39,456 nucleotides of DNA. Source: a virus. This document shows positions 29,597 through 36,714 of this stretch, piece after piece. Where the stretch lies: the UHGV virus genome UHGV-0205415. One strand, 5' to 3'. The stretch's first letter is position 1. Every line of letters begins with the position of its first letter. A program made the position numbers and the translations under genes. The notes below the pieces were generated by a model that was not told where the DNA came from, searched no databases, and saw only the letters and a program-made list of their open reading frames with translations.

Positions 29597-32062
29597 TCAG
29601 AATCCTCCTTTCTTCTTGGACTGCGGTTCCTCGCGTTCACGGCGGCGCATTTCAGCAGACTGTTGGTCTGTGTCATAAATAGCGCCATTTGCCTGAATGC
29701 AATACACCGTGCCGGTATTGCCATGACGATTGAGACGAAGGATTAGTTCGGTTTCACCAGGTGGAACACTGTCATCAAAAGCACCTTCACGATGGATCCC
29801 CACCCAATAATCGCAATCCTGTTCAATCTGCCCTGTATCTCGTGAGTCACTTGGTAATGGGCGTTTATTGGTTCGGCTTTCCAGTGCGCGGTTAAGCTGC
29901 GTCAGAAGCACAACAACGCAATCAAGCTCTTTGGCAAGGTTCTTCAGTCCTTTGGTGATCATGCCGTAAGCAAGGTCGTTGCGATCGGCCTTCTCAGCGG
30001 TCATTAGTGTCAGGTAATCGACCAGAATCATGCCAACACATCCTTTTTCTCGCTTGATTCGACGGCTTTCGCTAACGATTTGAGCCAGAGATAATCCCGG
30101 CGTGTCGTCGATGTAAAGCAGGTCGATTTCACTCAAACGATTAGCTGTTTCGATCGCCCTGTTGAAGTCACCATCGTAATCACCCTGATAGCCGTCATCA
30201 GCGTCATTTGTCGCCGGAAGGTAAAAAATATTCGGGTTAACACCAGACTTCTGCCCTACCAGTTTTTCCAGTATCTGATCACCTGGCATTTCAAGGCTGA
30301 ACATCAGAGCGGGCTTTTTCTCATGCACTGCGCAGTTGATTGCCATCTGGCTGTATAGCGTGGTGTTGTGGGTTAGAATGTATCCGTCAGTTGCATACAA
30401 ATGTCTCTCGTGGGATACCATGATGCAAATGCACTCTTCACGTCCAATATACTCAACCGACGTGATAACAGGCGCACTTGTTTTGATGCGTTTTGCAGTG
30501 AATTTTTGCTTCAGGCGTGGAGATTTTATGTGTGATAGAACCTCATCAGGCAACCTGATTGCGCAAATATGGGCATCCATACCTTTGCGCATTTCTCCCT
30601 TATAACTGAATTTCGGCTCCTGTTTGGTTGTCATACGACACACGCCACCAAGAGAATGCACCAGCCGCTTTACACCATCTGACAGGAACTTGCTTGCCGA
30701 GCTAAAGCGCAGGGCATTATTTCCTTCAACCCAACCATCGGTTTCAAGTAATCCGCATAGAACATCAATACGAGTTTGCTTATCAGCAGAAAAAATAATA
30801 TCCGGGATAATTTTAATCTCTGACATCCGGCCGTAGATACCAAGCCGTTGCATAACCCGCGTAAGAGATAATTTGCGGCTAAACTTGTGAGATAGGGAGT
30901 AATCGCAGCCAGAAACATGCCTGACTTCAATATCGTCACCCACTTCAGATCTTACTCGCTCAATGATGTATGGTTCCGTCATGCTGATTCGTGGCGTACC
31001 TGCAAGATTTCCATCGCCAAGTAACGCACCTAACAGCCATGGGCTAATCCCTAAATCAACAGGCAATCCGAAGTCACCGCTAATACCAGGAACATGAATG
31101 CGGCTTTGATAGCGAACGCATTCCATCATGTCCCGTAGGCGGCAGGTGTCTACAACATCAACGCCACCGGTAATACGGTTACTATGAATTTCCCACAAAT
31201 GATCATCCGCGCAATCAACGGTTCTTCCGTCAGAGAACGTAACTCGGTAAATATCTCGCTCCCCTTGAGGAAAAACTCCAGACACGAATGATGGTTGTCC
31301 ATCCACTGATGCTAGGGAATCTCCAACACATACGTCACGAAATGTTGTCCATGAACCATCAGCAAGCAAAATGCGTGAATTAAGCGGTTGCGCTTTCCCC
31401 ATCTTAGGGCGAGCGCCAATGACAAACAGAGAGCCTTTCACCAGACCTTTCGGTGACAGCATCCTGTCCAGCGATGGGATCCCTGTGCTCATTCCTCGTT
31501 GTTCGCCTGACGGGTCAAATCGCTTCTCAAGGTCGCTAACCCAGTCTTCCATGACCTCACCAAATGAGCGAAGGCCGCGACGCGATCCGGTTTTTGCATG
31601 GTCTGTCAGTTGCGTGAAAATCGCCTGAATAGCTTCGTACTTCTGCGTTGCAGTCATTCCGTTGCGGGAATAGAGCAATTCCGTCGCTTCAGTCATGCGG
31701 TTGATGGCGTAGCGTTCCATTGCGGTTTCACGAACCTGCATTGCATAGGCAACGATGTTTGCTGCGCTTGGCGTGTTCTTTGCGATCTCAGCGATATAAG
31801 CAAAACCGCCAACAGACGCCGTTAACGATTTACGCTCCAGTTCATCGAAAAGCGTCAGGCCATCTACTGGCTTTTGCTCCCGGTGCATTCTGGTTATTTC
31901 TTCGAAAAGGATTTTGTGTGGTCGGCAGTAAAATGAATCAGGCTTCAGCATCGCCAGAACTTTCTGGACGCGCTCACTGCTGTCATCATCCAGAAGCAAT
32001 CCACCAATCACCGCCTGCTCTGCCTCGATGCTATGGGGCGGCGCATAAAAATTATCGGTCAT
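29597..32062 (-). CDS. replicative DnaB-family helicase interrupted by an intein
   Basis: ORF 29597..32077; ATG at 32062 after GAGGGTG; DnaB motifs GARPKMGK ... TTLYSQMAINCAV ... LMFSLEMP flank a 343-aa insertion. Confidence 0.85.
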   Translation of the reverse strand: MTDNFYAPPHSIEAEQAVIGGLLLDDDSSERVQKVLAMLKPDSFYCRPHKILFEEITRMHREQKPVDGLTLFDELERKSLTASVGGFAYIAEIAKNTPSAANIVAYAMQVRETAMERYAINRMTEATELLYSRNGMTATQKYEAIQAIFTQLTDHAKTGSRRGLRSFGEVMEDWVSDLEKRFDPSGEQRGMSTGIPSLDRMLSPKGLVKGSLFVIGARPKMGKAQPLNSRILLADGSWTTFRDVCVGDSLASVDGQPSFVSGVFPQGERDIYRVTFSDGRTVDCADDHLWEIHSNRITGGVDVVDTCRLRDMMECVRYQSRIHVPGISGDFGLPVDLGISPWLLGALLGDGNLAGTPRISMTEPYIIERVRSEVGDDIEVRHVSGCDYSLSHKFSRKLSLTRVMQRLGIYGRMSEIKIIPDIIFSADKQTRIDVLCGLLETDGWVEGNNALRFSSASKFLSDGVKRLVHSLGGVCRMTTKQEPKFSYKGEMRKGMDAHICAIRLPDEVLSHIKSPRLKQKFTAKRIKTSAPVITSVEYIGREECICIMVSHERHLYATDGYILTHNTTLYSQMAINCAVHEKKPALMFSLEMPGDQILEKLVGQKSGVNPNIFYLPATNDADDGYQGDYDGDFNRAIETANRLSEIDLLYIDDTPGLSLAQIVSESRRIKREKGCVGMILVDYLTLMTAEKADRNDLAYGMITKGLKNLAKELDCVVVLLTQLNRALESRTNKRPLPSDSRDTGQIEQDCDYWVGIHREGAFDDSVPPGETELILRLNRHGNTGTVYCIQANGAIYDTDQQSAEMRRREREEPQSKKKGGF
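30365..31393 (-). mobile_element. intein with LAGLIDADG homing endonuclease motifs inserted in helicase Walker A (P-loop)
   Basis: Insertion between GK and TT of P-loop; ends in THN with Thr as +1 residue; LLGALLGDGN and LCGLLETDGW motifs; begins with Ala (no Cys/Ser nucleophile). Confidence 0.75.
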
Positions 32063-32951
32063 CGTGTTCACCCTCACGAACTTTCAGGTAGGTATTATCG
32101 TTAAGCAGGAAATCAAATCCCTTTTTGTGCCAGACGGTTCCGCGCTGATGGTTTGGGCGCTCTTCGAACATCCATCGGCAATTTTCGCCTACGTAGCTCA
32201 AATAATTTCTCCAGTCCTGCATCGTGAACCCATGCCCGTCAAGCTGGCGGGTTATCACTCCGGCTTTGCGCCAGAACGTTCGGATCTGGTTTTTACGCTT
32301 GTCATTCAGTGCGCGGATTTTTGGCGCTTCAGGAAGGATTTCGTGGTAAGCATCGACAACATCCTGACAGCTAACGGAAGGTTTTTTCTTGTCAGACTTT
32401 TTGTCTGCTGCGGTACTCTCTAATACGTCAGTATTAGAGATAATATTATTATATTCTTTATCTGTGGTAATTTGCTGGTAATCTGCTGGTACAGTATTGC
32501 TTGCAGGCATTGGTATTGCTGGCTTTGAGGTGGTAATTTGCTGGTAATCTGCTGGTACAAAATTTGACTGATAATCGTCATATTTCTCTACCGAGAAAAC
32601 TGAGAATTTACCGTGTGAAACCCAGTCAATCATGCCGAGTTTTTTGAACTTTCTAAGCAGGTACTGAACGCGATCTGGTTTGAGTCCTGTTTCAAACGCC
32701 AGAGAGTTTCTACCGCCAAGTAGCTTCCCTCTGCCTACCAGAATTTCTCCTGCGTCAGTCATTACATACTCAGGCGTATGCTTTGCTTTGAGGATTAAGT
32801 GAACCCACAGATGCGCAGCTTCTGCGTCCTTGTAAAACGGCACATCCATAATTTTACGGTGCAGCAAGGCATACCCCTTACCGCTGCTTTGATGCGGTTG
32901 TTGTAGCCTTCTGGCCTCTCTGGCTTCGGCTAGATTAGATATGTTACTCAT
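32052..32951 (-). CDS. replication initiator (O / P22 gp18-like) containing origin iterons
   Basis: Position upstream of helicase; internal DNA iterons encode repeated peptide [10 protein letters not shown]. Confidence 0.6.
32420..32565. repeat. candidate origin of replication: two identical 29-bp repeats (32465..32493, 32531..32559) built from TGCTGGTA-type iterons plus adjacent AT-rich tract
   Basis: Direct repeats and AT-rich stretch 32425..32460 read from sequence. Confidence 0.6.
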
Positions 32952-34547: not shown

Positions 34548-34916
34548 ATGGTTGGAACCGCTATAGCAAGCTTTTTTGGGATGTTGGCAATCTCGACAAT
34601 TTACGGCTTAGCGCATGCTTTTATTGCGAAATCTCTATCAGAAAAAATAAGCCAGGCTTGGGCGCATAGATCAGCTCGTTTCATGATTCTGGTGATCATA
34701 GCAATACAAGGGATATCTGTATTTATCCTCTATGGATCAAGCTTATACCTATTGTATCAAGGCGCGACATTTACGCCTTACACCAGTGATTACGGAACTC
34801 TATACGATGGTAGTGAAGACATCACTGTGGCTTGGATCGTCTTTGGTTTATCTATGGCCGTGTCTGTTGTAGCAGACATCATTAAGGTAATTCTCGTCTT
34901 AACCTTCGCTGACTAA
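34548..34916 (+). CDS. three-transmembrane-segment membrane protein immediately downstream of cI (rex position)
   Basis: AAGGGGG RBS; three long hydrophobic segments; co-oriented with cI, 18 nt after its stop. Confidence 0.5.
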   Translation: MVGTAIASFFGMLAISTIYGLAHAFIAKSLSEKISQAWAHRSARFMILVIIAIQGISVFILYGSSLYLLYQGATFTPYTSDYGTLYDGSEDITVAWIVFGLSMAVSVVADIIKVILVLTFAD

Positions 34917-35002
34917 CCTATAATCCCGGCAGCAATAGCTATCGGGATCCACTTCACATATCCCGCATAAAAAGCACTGAACAAGCAGACACCGAAAAAA
35001 TA

Positions 35003-35089
35003 AATATCCTTTGTATTCATCTGTTTATCATTATTCCATCAAAAATAAATACCCTGGGTATTTACACAATAAAATACCTACAGTATTCT
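35003..35089 (+). promoter_or_regulatory. OL region and pL: operators AATATCCTTTGTATT, AATACCCTGGGTATT, AATACCTACAGTATT; pL -35 TTTACA, -10 TATTCT
   Basis: Same operator family as OR; promoter hexamers 17 nt apart overlapping operators. Confidence 0.55.
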
Positions 35090-35134
35090 TTAGCCATCAG
35101 CAGGACGCTGGTAGCCAAACGGAACAGATTGGCA

Positions 35135-35176
35135 GGCTCTTTAACATTGATGGGATTGTCCCGCCGAAATGCGGGA
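35135..35176 (+). promoter_or_regulatory. nutL: boxA-like GGCTCTTTAACA and boxB hairpin TCCCGC-cgaaat-GCGGGA
   Basis: Identical boxB sequence to nutR; located between pL and N. Confidence 0.5.
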
Positions 35177-35283
35177 ACCAAAGAGTAGTTGGCTTTGGGG
35201 TGATGTGAAGTGCAGCTGCACGACGGCAACCGGAAGATAAGCACCCGGCGCGTCACCGCCAAAGTCAATCATCGGAGGTCAGC

Positions 35284-35583
35284 ATGACAGTAGTCATTAC
35301 ATATCTGGCTGACGATAACGCCAGAAATCGCCGCAGAGCACGCAGACAGGATCAACGTGAACAGGCAATGCAAGAACAGCGACTGGCGCGAAAAATTGCG
35401 CTAAAGCTCTCTGGTTGCGTCAGAGCAGACAAAGCAGCATCACTCGGAAGCCTTCGCTGCAAGAAGACAGAAGAAGTCGAGAGTAAACAGAATCGTATTT
35501 ACTACCGCAAGCCACGCAGTGAAATGGGTGTGACTTGTGTTGGTCGCCAGAAAATGAAATTAGGCAGCAAACCACTTATTTGA
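35284..35583 (+). CDS. N: N-like antiterminator
   Basis: Arg-rich motif NARNRRRARRQ near N-terminus, C-terminus GVTCVGRQKMKLGSKPLI like lambda N; GGAGG RBS. Confidence 0.75.
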   Translation: MTVVITYLADDNARNRRRARRQDQREQAMQEQRLARKIALKLSGCVRADKAASLGSLRCKKTEEVESKQNRIYYRKPRSEMGVTCVGRQKMKLGSKPLI

Positions 35584-35594
35584 GAGGAATTAAT

Positions 35595-36218
35595 ATGTCA
35601 TCAATCCGCTTAACTACGAGAATGAAAGAGGAAATCGCTCGTAACGCTTTAATTAAGTCTGGGGTTTTCACTGAACTTGAAGAAGTAACAAAGTTAAAGA
35701 ACCAGCTTGCACTTGACGCCAGAGTTATTGCGTTTGGCGGTAAAAAGAAAACTGAGGAAGTGGATCAGTTATCATCCAAGTTGGTAGCTATAAGTGAAGA
35801 ACTTGAAAAGATGGGATGTTCATTTTACTCATACGATGTTCGTTCTACTTCAATTTATCTTACTGTATCTGGCAGAAGGGTTGGATGGCATTCATATGGG
35901 AAAGACGGCAACGGCGAAGATATATTGCTCCCTACTCCGACAAAAGATAAATGCATGTTTGACGCAGAGCACGAAATAACAAAAAGGTTTGATGAAATCT
36001 GCGCATTACAACAAAAATTTGAAGCCAAGAAAAAGGATATCGAATCAAATGTATGGGCTGCTTTAAACTCAGTCACAACAGTTAAGCGACTCATTGAAGT
36101 TTGGCCTGAAAGCAAAGAATTGCTACCAAAAGAAGCAGATAAAGCAAGTGCAGCACTTCCTGCTTTACGGGTAGAAGATTTGAATAAGATGATTGGACTT
36201 CCTTCCGAGGCCGCGTAG
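35595..36218 (+). CDS. hypothetical 207-aa protein directly downstream of N
   Basis: ORF 35535..36218; ATG at 35595 after GAGAGGA; no family recognised. Confidence 0.5.
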   Translation: MSSIRLTTRMKEEIARNALIKSGVFTELEEVTKLKNQLALDARVIAFGGKKKTEEVDQLSSKLVAISEELEKMGCSFYSYDVRSTSIYLTVSGRRVGWHSYGKDGNGEDILLPTPTKDKCMFDAEHEITKRFDEICALQQKFEAKKKDIESNVWAALNSVTTVKRLIEVWPESKELLPKEADKASAALPALRVEDLNKMIGLPSEAA

Positions 36219-36233
36219 TCGGCCTTTATTTTT
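36208..36233 (+). terminator. tL-type terminator overlapping the stop codon of the preceding gene
   Basis: AGGCCG-cgtagt-CGGCCT followed by TTATTTTTGG. Confidence 0.5.
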
Positions 36234-36352
36234 GGCATAAACAACAGAATAAACACTGCACTGTGTATTCATTCCCTCGAGTGAATACACGGAGCAATGT
36301 CGCTCGTAACTAAACAGGAGCCGACTTGTTCTGATTATTGGAAATCTTCTTT

Positions 36353-36376
36353 GCCCTCCAATGTGAGGGCTTTTTT
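36353..36376 (+). terminator. strong intrinsic terminator upstream of cIII
   Basis: GCCCTC-caatgtg-AGGGC followed by TTTTTT. Confidence 0.65.
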
Positions 36377-36442
36377 ATATGCATACCAATAACGCTTCAC
36401 TAGAGGCGTTTTCGTTATGCAATCAAACAGAAGGAGCATCCT

Positions 36443-36613
36443 ATGCAACAGTTCGCTATTGCAGGGGCGGCATCGGTTCGCCCTTTCAACCCGATTTTAT
36501 CGGTACAGCATTCACGAAAAAACATTTTAACCGGAGCAGACTTTAAACAACCAAGAATGAAAAGTTTGCTCGAAAAGCTTTGGGATATTTTGAAACAACA
36601 AGGCCGCCCATGA
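36443..36613 (+). CDS. cIII: CIII-like protease inhibitor (56 aa, below track cutoff)
   Basis: AAGGAG RBS; MQQFAIAG N-terminus and KSLLEKLWDIL helix resemble lambda CIII (recalled). Confidence 0.55.
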   Translation: MQQFAIAGAASVRPFNPILSVQHSRKNILTGADFKQPRMKSLLEKLWDILKQQGRP

Positions 36614-36714
36614 GTTTTACAGATAACTGGTCAGACGAAGAATTCATTCGTCAGATGAACAAAATGCTCAATCAGCACAAAGAACAGGAGAAAGATGATG
36701 ATTCTGACTCTGAA
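36610..36714 (+). CDS. small acidic 34-aa ORF translationally coupled to cIII
   Basis: ATGA overlap with cIII stop; speculative. Confidence 0.2.

Follow-up and report, generated by a model that had tools for sequence, protein, structure and literature searches.

An apparently orphan Nmad5-family gene in the N–cIII cassette slot of an HK620-like coliphage and its possible role in early host interaction

Introduction

Lambdoid phages hold different accessory genes between the antitermination gene N and cIII. HK140 carries ral and sieB in this slot, while HK620 carries hkaQ and hkaP, and the order of its early-left region is N–hkaQ–tL1–hkaP–tL2A–tL2B–cIII. Here, we analyze the gene found at the same place in the virus genome UHGV-0205415, an HK620-like (P22-type) temperate coliphage whose whole 39,456-nucleotide stretch is referred to as the window. 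An original prediction, made from the letters of the window, had described this gene as the first one after N and as a member of no recognisable family. We show below that it encodes an Nmad5 protein (PF18757) and travels as a mobile cassette, and we tentatively propose that it acts as an early host-interference or counter-defence factor.

The name of the family stands for nucleotide modification associated domain 5. The modification cassette of phages SN1/M6 lists Nmad5 (PMC9476957), and the four steps of 5-NedU synthesis in M6 have been assigned to gp51–54, which are a transferase, a decarboxylase, a radical-SAM isomerase and a kinase (PMC8989533). None of these four proteins carries the Nmad5 label. 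In Dhillonvirus, mutants that escape the Tmn defence carry a K296E (or K216E) substitution in Nmad5, and reversion of this mutation restores Tmn sensitivity (PMC11846954). In the same study, deletion of the gene was viable but gave no Tmn escape, the gene was toxic and hence could not be cloned, and the escape data suggested a gain of function (PMC11846954). In the literature that we found, no activity is reported for any Nmad5 protein, and the literature on phages HK542, mEp235 or PhiR12 says nothing on their Nmad5 gene.

Results

The gene and its family

The ATG at 35595 starts an open reading frame (ORF) of 207 codons that is closed by a TAG stop at 36216–36218. In agreement with the strong ribosome-binding site claimed for it, GAGAGGAA, read directly 6 nt upstream of the ATG, is a good Shine–Dalgarno site. 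The gene does lie directly after N, since the upstream ORF is N-like, and the spacing between the N stop codon and the ATG is 11 nt. Among 58 distinct alleles from 80 related viral contigs (IMG/VR loci L005–L084), the median ratio of non-synonymous to synonymous substitution (dN/dS) was approximately 0.31, with variable sites mostly at third codon positions. A full-length, ungapped ORF was present in 74 of 82 copies; two copies contained an internal stop, and in six the match was one base short or gapped. The 207-codon ORF is a genuine gene under purifying selection. An ORF on the opposite strand (35855–36256) was taken as a shadow ORF, given the strong coding evidence on the plus strand.

The protein is soluble, as predicted: its maximum Kyte–Doolittle mean over 19 residues is 0.6, its isoelectric point (pI) is 6.2 and it has no net charge. 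A membrane protein was rejected as a reading, in the absence of any hydrophobic or transmembrane segment, and so was a DNA mimic, as the pI is that of a protein without acidic bias.

The claim that no family could be recognised is refuted by a full-length match to PF18757, in which residues 4–203 cover profile positions 1–206 of 206 (E 4.3e-71; 239.7 bits vs. a gathering cut-off of 27). The protein also matched PHROG 1965 (E 9e-84), and E. coli proteins 95–99.8% identical to it are named ‘Nmad5 family putative nucleotide modification protein’ in RefSeq. Scans against NCBIfam and PADLOC gave zero matches, and a Pfam match to YfjL_C (E 0.0044), under the cut-off of that family, was treated as helical noise. 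Clear homology to Ral, SieB or Esc, which the prediction had named as the outcome that would speak against it, did not turn up: no Pfam, PHROG or PADLOC match to Ral or SieB/Esc was obtained, while the same library detected a true Ral (PF11058, E 2e-48) in the neighbouring cassette of sister locus L006. Pfam and Foldseek searches likewise found no homology to known anti-defence families, Gad1 included. The gene is a member of a catalogued but functionally unsolved family and not a new kind of element.

Nmad5 was found in 211 of 5426 complete E. coli genomes and is also carried by phages mEp235, HK542, HK244 and PhiR12 and by Stx1-converting phages. A profile search of 1.84 billion representative proteins returned 2692 clusters at E ≤ 1e-3, nearly all of about 200 amino acids, and the family (approximately 2700 clusters at 50% identity) extends over phages of Enterobacterales, Pseudomonas, Vibrio and Bordetella. 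The roughly 170 matches with precomputed Pfam annotation are all single-domain proteins, with no domain fusion among them. From 48 records of Stx2a-converting phages, tblastn recovered only residues 34–207. In the Stx2a phage Stx2_PV12-16 (locus L096, 561–1461), the upstream part of the gene is replaced by DNA with an IS3-family OrfA-like ORF, recognised by eye, which we take to be an insertion sequence (IS); the longest Nmad5 ORF left there has 152 amino acids, the same length as cluster P0010 (232 member sequences).

Conserved residues and predicted structure

In alignments of 143, 102 and 66 sequences (20–43% identity), the signature residues of the family were 83–100% conserved, and all of them are present in the window protein: R5, R43, G48, G93, T162, L166, W170-P171-E172, L176, P178, L196-N197 and G201-L202-P203. 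The near-invariant positions are mostly Gly, Pro, Leu and Trp, together with R5, R43, T162, E172 and N197, and no classical catalytic residue set was recognised among the conserved positions of these alignments.

Two AlphaFold2 models, built from 23 and 66 sequences, reached a mean predicted local distance difference test score (pLDDT) of 85.8 and 87.2 and a predicted template modelling score of 0.70 and 0.74, respectively. Both contain three long N-terminal helices, a beta hairpin at residues 86–100 and a 32-residue helix (127–158), followed by short helices that carry TTVKRLIEVWPESKELLP. Residues 11–170 have a pLDDT above 90, except for a dip to 85 at 71–80, whereas residues 183–207 stay below 50 in both models. 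Despite this low pLDDT, the tail residues L196, N197, G201, L202 and P203 are among the most conserved in the family, a pattern that would be expected of a docking motif which folds only on its partner.

Searches of Protein Data Bank (PDB) sequences with the 23- and 102-sequence profiles yielded nothing beyond coiled-coil or designed-helix noise (E ≥ 0.02). Foldseek with the better model found no related solved structure in the PDB, the best match being to flagellin-like helical bundles (E 0.94), and in BFVD it found other Nmad5 proteins only.

A mobile cassette in the N–cIII interval

The slot was compared by BLAST of the window against the 80 related contigs. Across these loci, the N–cIII interval (equivalent to window 35575–36440) holds cassettes in varying combinations. 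Breakpoints recur on the left at 35428, 35497–35503, 35530, 35560–64 and 35575, and on the right at 36248–36298 (36248, 36258, 36263, 36292 and 36298) and at 36376–81. In sister phages, other cassettes of 300–1300 bp are inserted at exactly these breakpoints, including 36376/36381. The segment from about 36241 to 36415, with a hairpin and two terminators, is conserved in HK620, which has no Nmad5 gene, while the terminator at 36207–36236 is kept in HK542 and mEp235 and absent from HK620. Of these elements, the terminator overlapping the stop codon alone moves with the Nmad5 gene; the hairpin and the terminators homologous to tL2A and tL2B belong to the phage backbone. The Nmad5 gene is a self-contained mobile cassette that comprises a Shine–Dalgarno site, an ORF and a terminator of its own (approximately 35575–36248).

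These results also bear on the suggestion that the gene is followed by a regulated boundary. Terminators and hairpin do mark module edges, as the right-hand breakpoints show, but they are not specific to the gene, given that the hairpin, tL2A and tL2B occur in HK620 as well. The boundary consists of the usual terminators and linkers that frame a cassette hotspot and is not a gene-specific control element.

The expectation that the slot after N holds host-interaction genes was borne out by its other occupants. In 11 of the 80 loci, the gene immediately upstream of Nmad5 is Ral, and in one locus (L005, 5799–6773) the Gabija anti-defence protein Gad1 (PF25705, E 4e-67) lies directly downstream. 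The interval further contains DUF2528 (13 of 80 loci), PHROGs 1636, 1273 and 6949, and a 322-residue PHROG 1376 protein with a long Glu/Ala/Lys/Arg-rich stretch (15 of 80 loci). By the same logic of context, several of these genes of uncharacterised families are anti-defence candidates. A literature search for a lambdoid anti-defence hotspot yielded nothing specific.

Short common sequences were observed at the cassette edges. The linker CTTATTTGAGAGGAATTAAT upstream of the Nmad5 ATG is identical whether N or Ral precedes it, and GGTGGCCTTTATTTTC, found after the Ral stop codon (L006, 2226–2262), resembles GTCGGCCTTTATTTTTGG in the tail of the Nmad5 terminator (window 36218–36240). Such linkers may be the recombination substrates for cassette shuffling.

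More distant contexts were taken from contigs encoding homologues and from phage records. Klebsiella and Proteus prophages whose repressors are unrelated also carry the Nmad5 gene close to the promoter of the early-left operon, with Kil, RecT/YqaJ, AAA_24 and SSB downstream of it. A different setting was seen in Dhillonvirus SM_S22 and Vibrio phage VchM-138, where the gene is inserted singly amid head or tail genes and reads on the opposite strand.

Modification genes in Nmad5-bearing phages

The association with nucleotide- or DNA-modification genes that gave Nmad5 its name holds in Yuavirus-like and Ithacavirus-like members of the family and is not found in the window phage. In Pfam scans, the 29 window ORFs proved to comprise structural, lysis, nin, replication and recombination genes, with no methyltransferase, DpdA, DNA kinase or transferase. 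Neither did the full annotation of HK542 include a DNA methyltransferase, DpdA, DNA kinase or aGPT-Pplase. Since no modification enzyme was found among the window ORFs, nor the usual ones in the HK542 annotation, the lambdoid Nmad5 copies would be orphans that act without a phage modification enzyme. Near its right end (locus L114, 36330–38239), HK542 has two annotated glycosyltransferases of unstated substrate, the only conceivable modification enzymes in the Nmad5-bearing lambdoid phages that we looked at.

In four loci of divergent thymidine-hypermodifying phages, the order HMUDK_hel–Nmad5–ThyA-like hydroxymethylase (Thymidylat_synt) is conserved, and in three of them (L093, L111 and L112) the stop and start codons overlap or abut. 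The chemistry encoded downstream differs among these loci, being PALP-type in L093 and L113 and FAD-type in L111. In Ithacavirus-like phages (L085 and L109), the non-homologous ThyX (Thy1) lies immediately upstream of Nmad5.

A further homologue, gp56 of Salmonella phage SPN3UB (L003, 2049–4621; Pfam E 3e-74), follows an Eaa protein and a gene annotated as ‘queuine tRNA-ribosyltransferase’ (TGT). The latter had no Pfam match at E < 0.01, which leaves a link to 7-deazaguanine unconfirmed.

The Tmn-escape residue

Retrieval of the SM_S22 sequence (CDS6) showed that K296 and K216 of the Dhillonvirus protein are the same residue, numbered from different start codons. K296, in the motif TDKK(296)LIKAWPE, aligns with R165 of the window protein, in TTVKR(165)LIEVWPE. 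From the K296E escape allele together with this alignment it follows that the signature helix of Nmad5 forms a surface on which the change of one charge is enough to shift the outcome against a host defence system.

Anatomy of the early-left operon

The coordinates of the early-left features are given in Table 1. HK620 is 97% identical to the window over 34900–35475, which includes the annotated position of pL. Within nutL, a boxB-like hairpin (CCCGC-CGAAAT-GCGGG) was read directly at 35160–35175, and the Pfam N_peptide match of the N-like protein is weak (E 0.0017).

Table 1. Features of the early-left region of the window, in the order of their positions.
Feature	Position	Strand	Evidence and remarks
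pL, early leftward promoter driving N and the Nmad5 gene	35061–35096	+	promoter-like TTTACA-17-TATTCT at 35061–35089; HK620 annotation
nutL	35135–35176	+	coordinates carried over from the HK620 nutL annotation
N-like antiterminator gene, 99 amino acids	35284–35583	+	PHROG 271, E 3.8e-36; arginine-rich N terminus
Shine–Dalgarno site of the Nmad5 gene, GAGAGGAA	35582–35589	+	read directly; overlaps the N stop codon
Nmad5-family gene	35595–36218	+	207 amino acids and stop; Pfam PF18757, PHROG 1965, RefSeq naming, dN/dS
Intrinsic terminator overlapping the Nmad5 stop codon	36207–36236	+	consensus scan, fold, comparison with HK542 and mEp235
Long conserved hairpin without T run (not a terminator)	36253–36300	+	backbone element, recombination junction
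Terminator homologous to HK620 tL2A	36353–36376	+	hairpin 36353–36370 with T6; −11.1 kcal/mol, z −2.9
Terminator homologous to HK620 tL2B	36391–36413	+	−9.9 kcal/mol, z −3.1; overlooked by the original prediction
cIII-like gene, first gene past the terminator cluster	36443–36613	+	PHROG 550 ‘CIII’, E 1e-22

The two intrinsic terminators expected downstream of the gene, ahead of cIII, were both recovered by the consensus scan. The one overlapping the stop codon consists of a hairpin at 36207–36226, with a 7-bp stem (5 G-C pairs) and a 6-nt loop, and the tail TATTTTTGG (−11.0 kcal/mol). With a hairpin, a T run and homology to HK620 tL2A/tL2B, the sites at 36353–36376 and 36391–36413 make up a lambdoid tL2-type cluster. 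An inverted repeat does exist between the gene and this cluster, but the 9-bp arms given for it fall short: the arms (36253–36274 and 36279–36300) are 22 nt each and include a 14-bp perfect stem. The resulting hairpin folds at −24.9 kcal/mol (z −6.0), and 0 of 200 shuffles fold as well. Rfam searches of the whole window and of 34900–36700 found nothing at gathering score, with only chance-level matches for the hairpin, which might either be processed by RNase III upstream of cIII or be no more than a linker for recombination.

The consensus scan of the plus strand found no terminator-like site from pL to 36207 and no promoter-like site from pL to the Nmad5 gene; pL is the only promoter-like site between 34900 and the gene. 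Judging from this anatomy, the Nmad5 gene should be co-transcribed with N from pL as an immediate-early product, ahead of N antitermination and without need of it, because it starts 11 nt after N and no terminator-like site separates pL from 36207. It should also be silent in the lysogen, since the simple consensus scan places only pL upstream. Compared with a moron, the gene possesses a terminator of its own, which moves with it, and lacks its own promoter, there being an 11-nt gap after N and no promoter-like site between pL and the gene.

Other genes of the window

Directly 3′ of cI, in the position of lambda rex, the window encodes a predicted membrane protein of 122 amino acids (34548–34916, plus strand). 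It is homologous to HK620 hkaS (PHROG 6534) and is a candidate prophage-expressed exclusion gene. On the minus strand, 29597–32077 encodes a DnaB-type replicative helicase of 826 amino acids, with the DnaB N domain at 13–117 and the C domain at 572–792. The approximately 450 residues between these domains match LAGLIDADG_3, and the HK542 homologue has about 478 amino acids; the insert is probably an intein with a homing-endonuclease domain.

Discussion

The results obtained here lead us to propose that lambdoid Nmad5 may be an accessory protein that is made immediately early, has no catalytic activity and binds a partner in order to interfere with the host or counter its defences, a reading that we favour tentatively and would not call established. 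The mechanism is held with moderate to low confidence. The protein would be a non-catalytic binding protein rather than a base-modification enzyme, with a body (residues 1–180) predicted to form a rigid helical bundle with a small beta insert, followed by the conserved, predicted disordered tail LPA...DLNxxIGLP (188–203). This tail would dock on a widely conserved partner, either in host or phage DNA or nucleotide metabolism or a host immune sensor, and the basic R165 in the signature helix TTVK[KR]L..WPE would belong to the functional surface. In lambdoid phages, Nmad5 would be used to interfere with the host early in infection or to counter host defences, in the manner of Ral and Gad1 in the same slot. 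It is also possible, though we consider it doubtful, that the family name is a misnomer throughout and that Nmad5 is a widespread non-enzymatic counter-defence or host-takeover factor whose tail and signature helix bind a conserved host sensor or nucleotide-metabolism enzyme; the orphan lambdoid copies would then show its action without a phage modification enzyme.

Several observations weigh against the proposed host-interference role. Many neighbours in the slot have no assigned function, and the adjacency to Gad1 occurs in one locus. The counter-defence role is suggested by guilt by association and by one gain-of-function allele in a homologue of 24% identity, and N-independent expression is read solely from consensus scans. 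The gene is dispensable, because it is disrupted in the 48 Stx2a phage records and carries internal stops in 2 of 82 loci. The invariant E172 and N197 could still form an unrecognised active site with R43. Finally, the tight and repeated linkage to pyrimidine/DNA-modification genes in lytic phages fits nucleotide metabolism better than generic anti-defence.

This linkage is the core of an explanation in which the Nmad5 name is right. The protein would be an accessory, non-catalytic or cryptically catalytic part of pyrimidine/DNA-base modification, which might provide thymidylate-synthase-type enzymes with a scaffold, set their specificity or regulate them. Its target in lambdoid phages would be host ThyA or the machinery that supplies deoxynucleoside triphosphates (dNTPs), and nucleotide pools would be biased early in infection. 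The strict recurrence of the HMUDK_hel–Nmad5–Thymidylat_synt order despite differing downstream chemistry, ThyX immediately upstream in Ithacavirus-like phages, the inclusion of Nmad5 in the SN1/M6 cassette (PMC9476957) and the position of SPN3UB gp56 after the annotated queuine tRNA-ribosyltransferase are all consistent with it, and the toxicity on cloning (PMC11846954) would fit interference with the supply of deoxythymidine monophosphate. However, no partner enzyme was found in the 29 window ORFs, HK542 lists no base-modification enzyme of the usual kinds, and the M6 pathway steps belong to four other proteins (PMC8989533). Further, the family shows neither a recognisable catalytic motif nor an enzyme-domain fusion, the SPN3UB ‘TGT’ annotation has no Pfam support, and many members occur in contexts without any nucleotide genes. 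We regard this explanation as unlikely.

Weaker than the modification explanation, and accordingly rated as rather improbable, is that Nmad5 is a DNA replication/recombination accessory protein which binds DNA ends, intermediates or a replisome component and aids the recombination and replication module of the phage. Its presence is independent of the recombinase type (RecT in the window, Erf in HK542, Rad52-like in mEp235), even if the location of the gene, always in a region of early DNA metabolism, is in favour of it: temperate-phage copies lie upstream of RecT/YqaJ/SSB, Erf, Sak or AAA_24 and lytic-phage copies adjoin exonuclease, primase and Pol A or, in eiAU, follow the helicase-primase. 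The conserved basic residues R5, R43 and K/R164–165 also favour such a role, but the protein as a whole has no net charge (pI 6.2), it is an independent cassette with three terminators between it and the recombination genes, and it is dispensable, as seen from the viable Dhillonvirus deletion (PMC11846954) and the IS-disrupted Stx2a copies. Weaker still, to the point of being very improbable, is the idea that the prophage expresses Nmad5 for superinfection exclusion or defence, as with genes of the SieB/Rex type. With pL as the only upstream promoter-like site, the Nmad5 gene should be repressed in lysogens; it also shares strand and operon with N, lacks a transmembrane segment and a PADLOC match, and belongs to a family that is abundant in strictly lytic phages. 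[quoted passage not shown]

What is new here is modest, namely that the gene appears to be an orphan, is placed for immediate-early expression and neighbours Ral and Gad1 in sister phages, that its predicted disordered tail is conserved, and that the Tmn-escape residue could be mapped onto the protein. Nmad5 is a large, named family without an assigned activity, and it could be solved most simply in its lambdoid copies: no modification genes that would confound the result were found in these phages, the early slot of the gene is defined, HK542 and mEp235 are genetically tractable laboratory phages, and R165 is a candidate functional residue. If counter-defence is the true role, a broadly distributed family would join the anti-defence catalogue and the reading of Nmad5 in hypermodification clusters would change; if it is thymidylate or dNTP manipulation, a new step would be added to early host takeover by temperate phages. 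The gene offers a good lead for experiments in tractable phages and does not amount to a discovery.

Comparison with known systems

The catalogued PF18757/PHROG 1965 proteins closest to the window protein (mEp235_037, HK542 gp33 and those of E. coli prophages) are 97–99.8% identical to it and are encoded at the same place, between N (or Nun) and cIII. They show no difference at the sequence level; what the window phage lacks is modification genes, as far as they were found, that would justify the name. The Nmad5 proteins of the Pseudomonas M6/Yua/PAC9/SN1 type have the same Pfam domain (PAC9 ORF85, E 3.8e-32) and share with the window protein a C-terminal core with the WPE and LN..GLP motifs, while BLAST aligns only residues 121–207, at 31–44% identity. 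Their genes are set between HMUDK_hel and a ThyA-like hydroxymethylase, in contrast to the window gene, which appears to be an orphan in a temperate phage.

Dhillonvirus SM_S22 CDS6 contains the same domain (E 4.5e-56) and is likewise a moron-like, independent and non-essential cassette. It differs in its approximately 24% identity, its length of 254 amino acids with a larger middle insert, and its location on the opposite strand in the head-gene cluster of a virulent siphovirus; the Tmn phenotype is that of the Dhillonvirus protein.

With HK620, the window phage has in common pL, nutL, most of N, the hairpin, tL2A, tL2B and cIII, and no similarity is found over window 35475–36247. Like the Nmad5 gene, HK620 hkaQ is an accessory ORF between N and the first terminator; in the window phage, the Nmad5 cassette, which brings a terminator of its own, takes the place of hkaQ and hkaP. 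Lambda Ral, the anti-restriction protein of a 66-residue family, and the anti-Gabija protein Gad1, in turn, are encoded by early pL-operon genes that form adjacent cassettes in the same N–cIII accessory interval of sister phages. Nmad5 has no similarity to them in sequence or fold and does not belong to either family, yet it resembles them in context and possibly in role.

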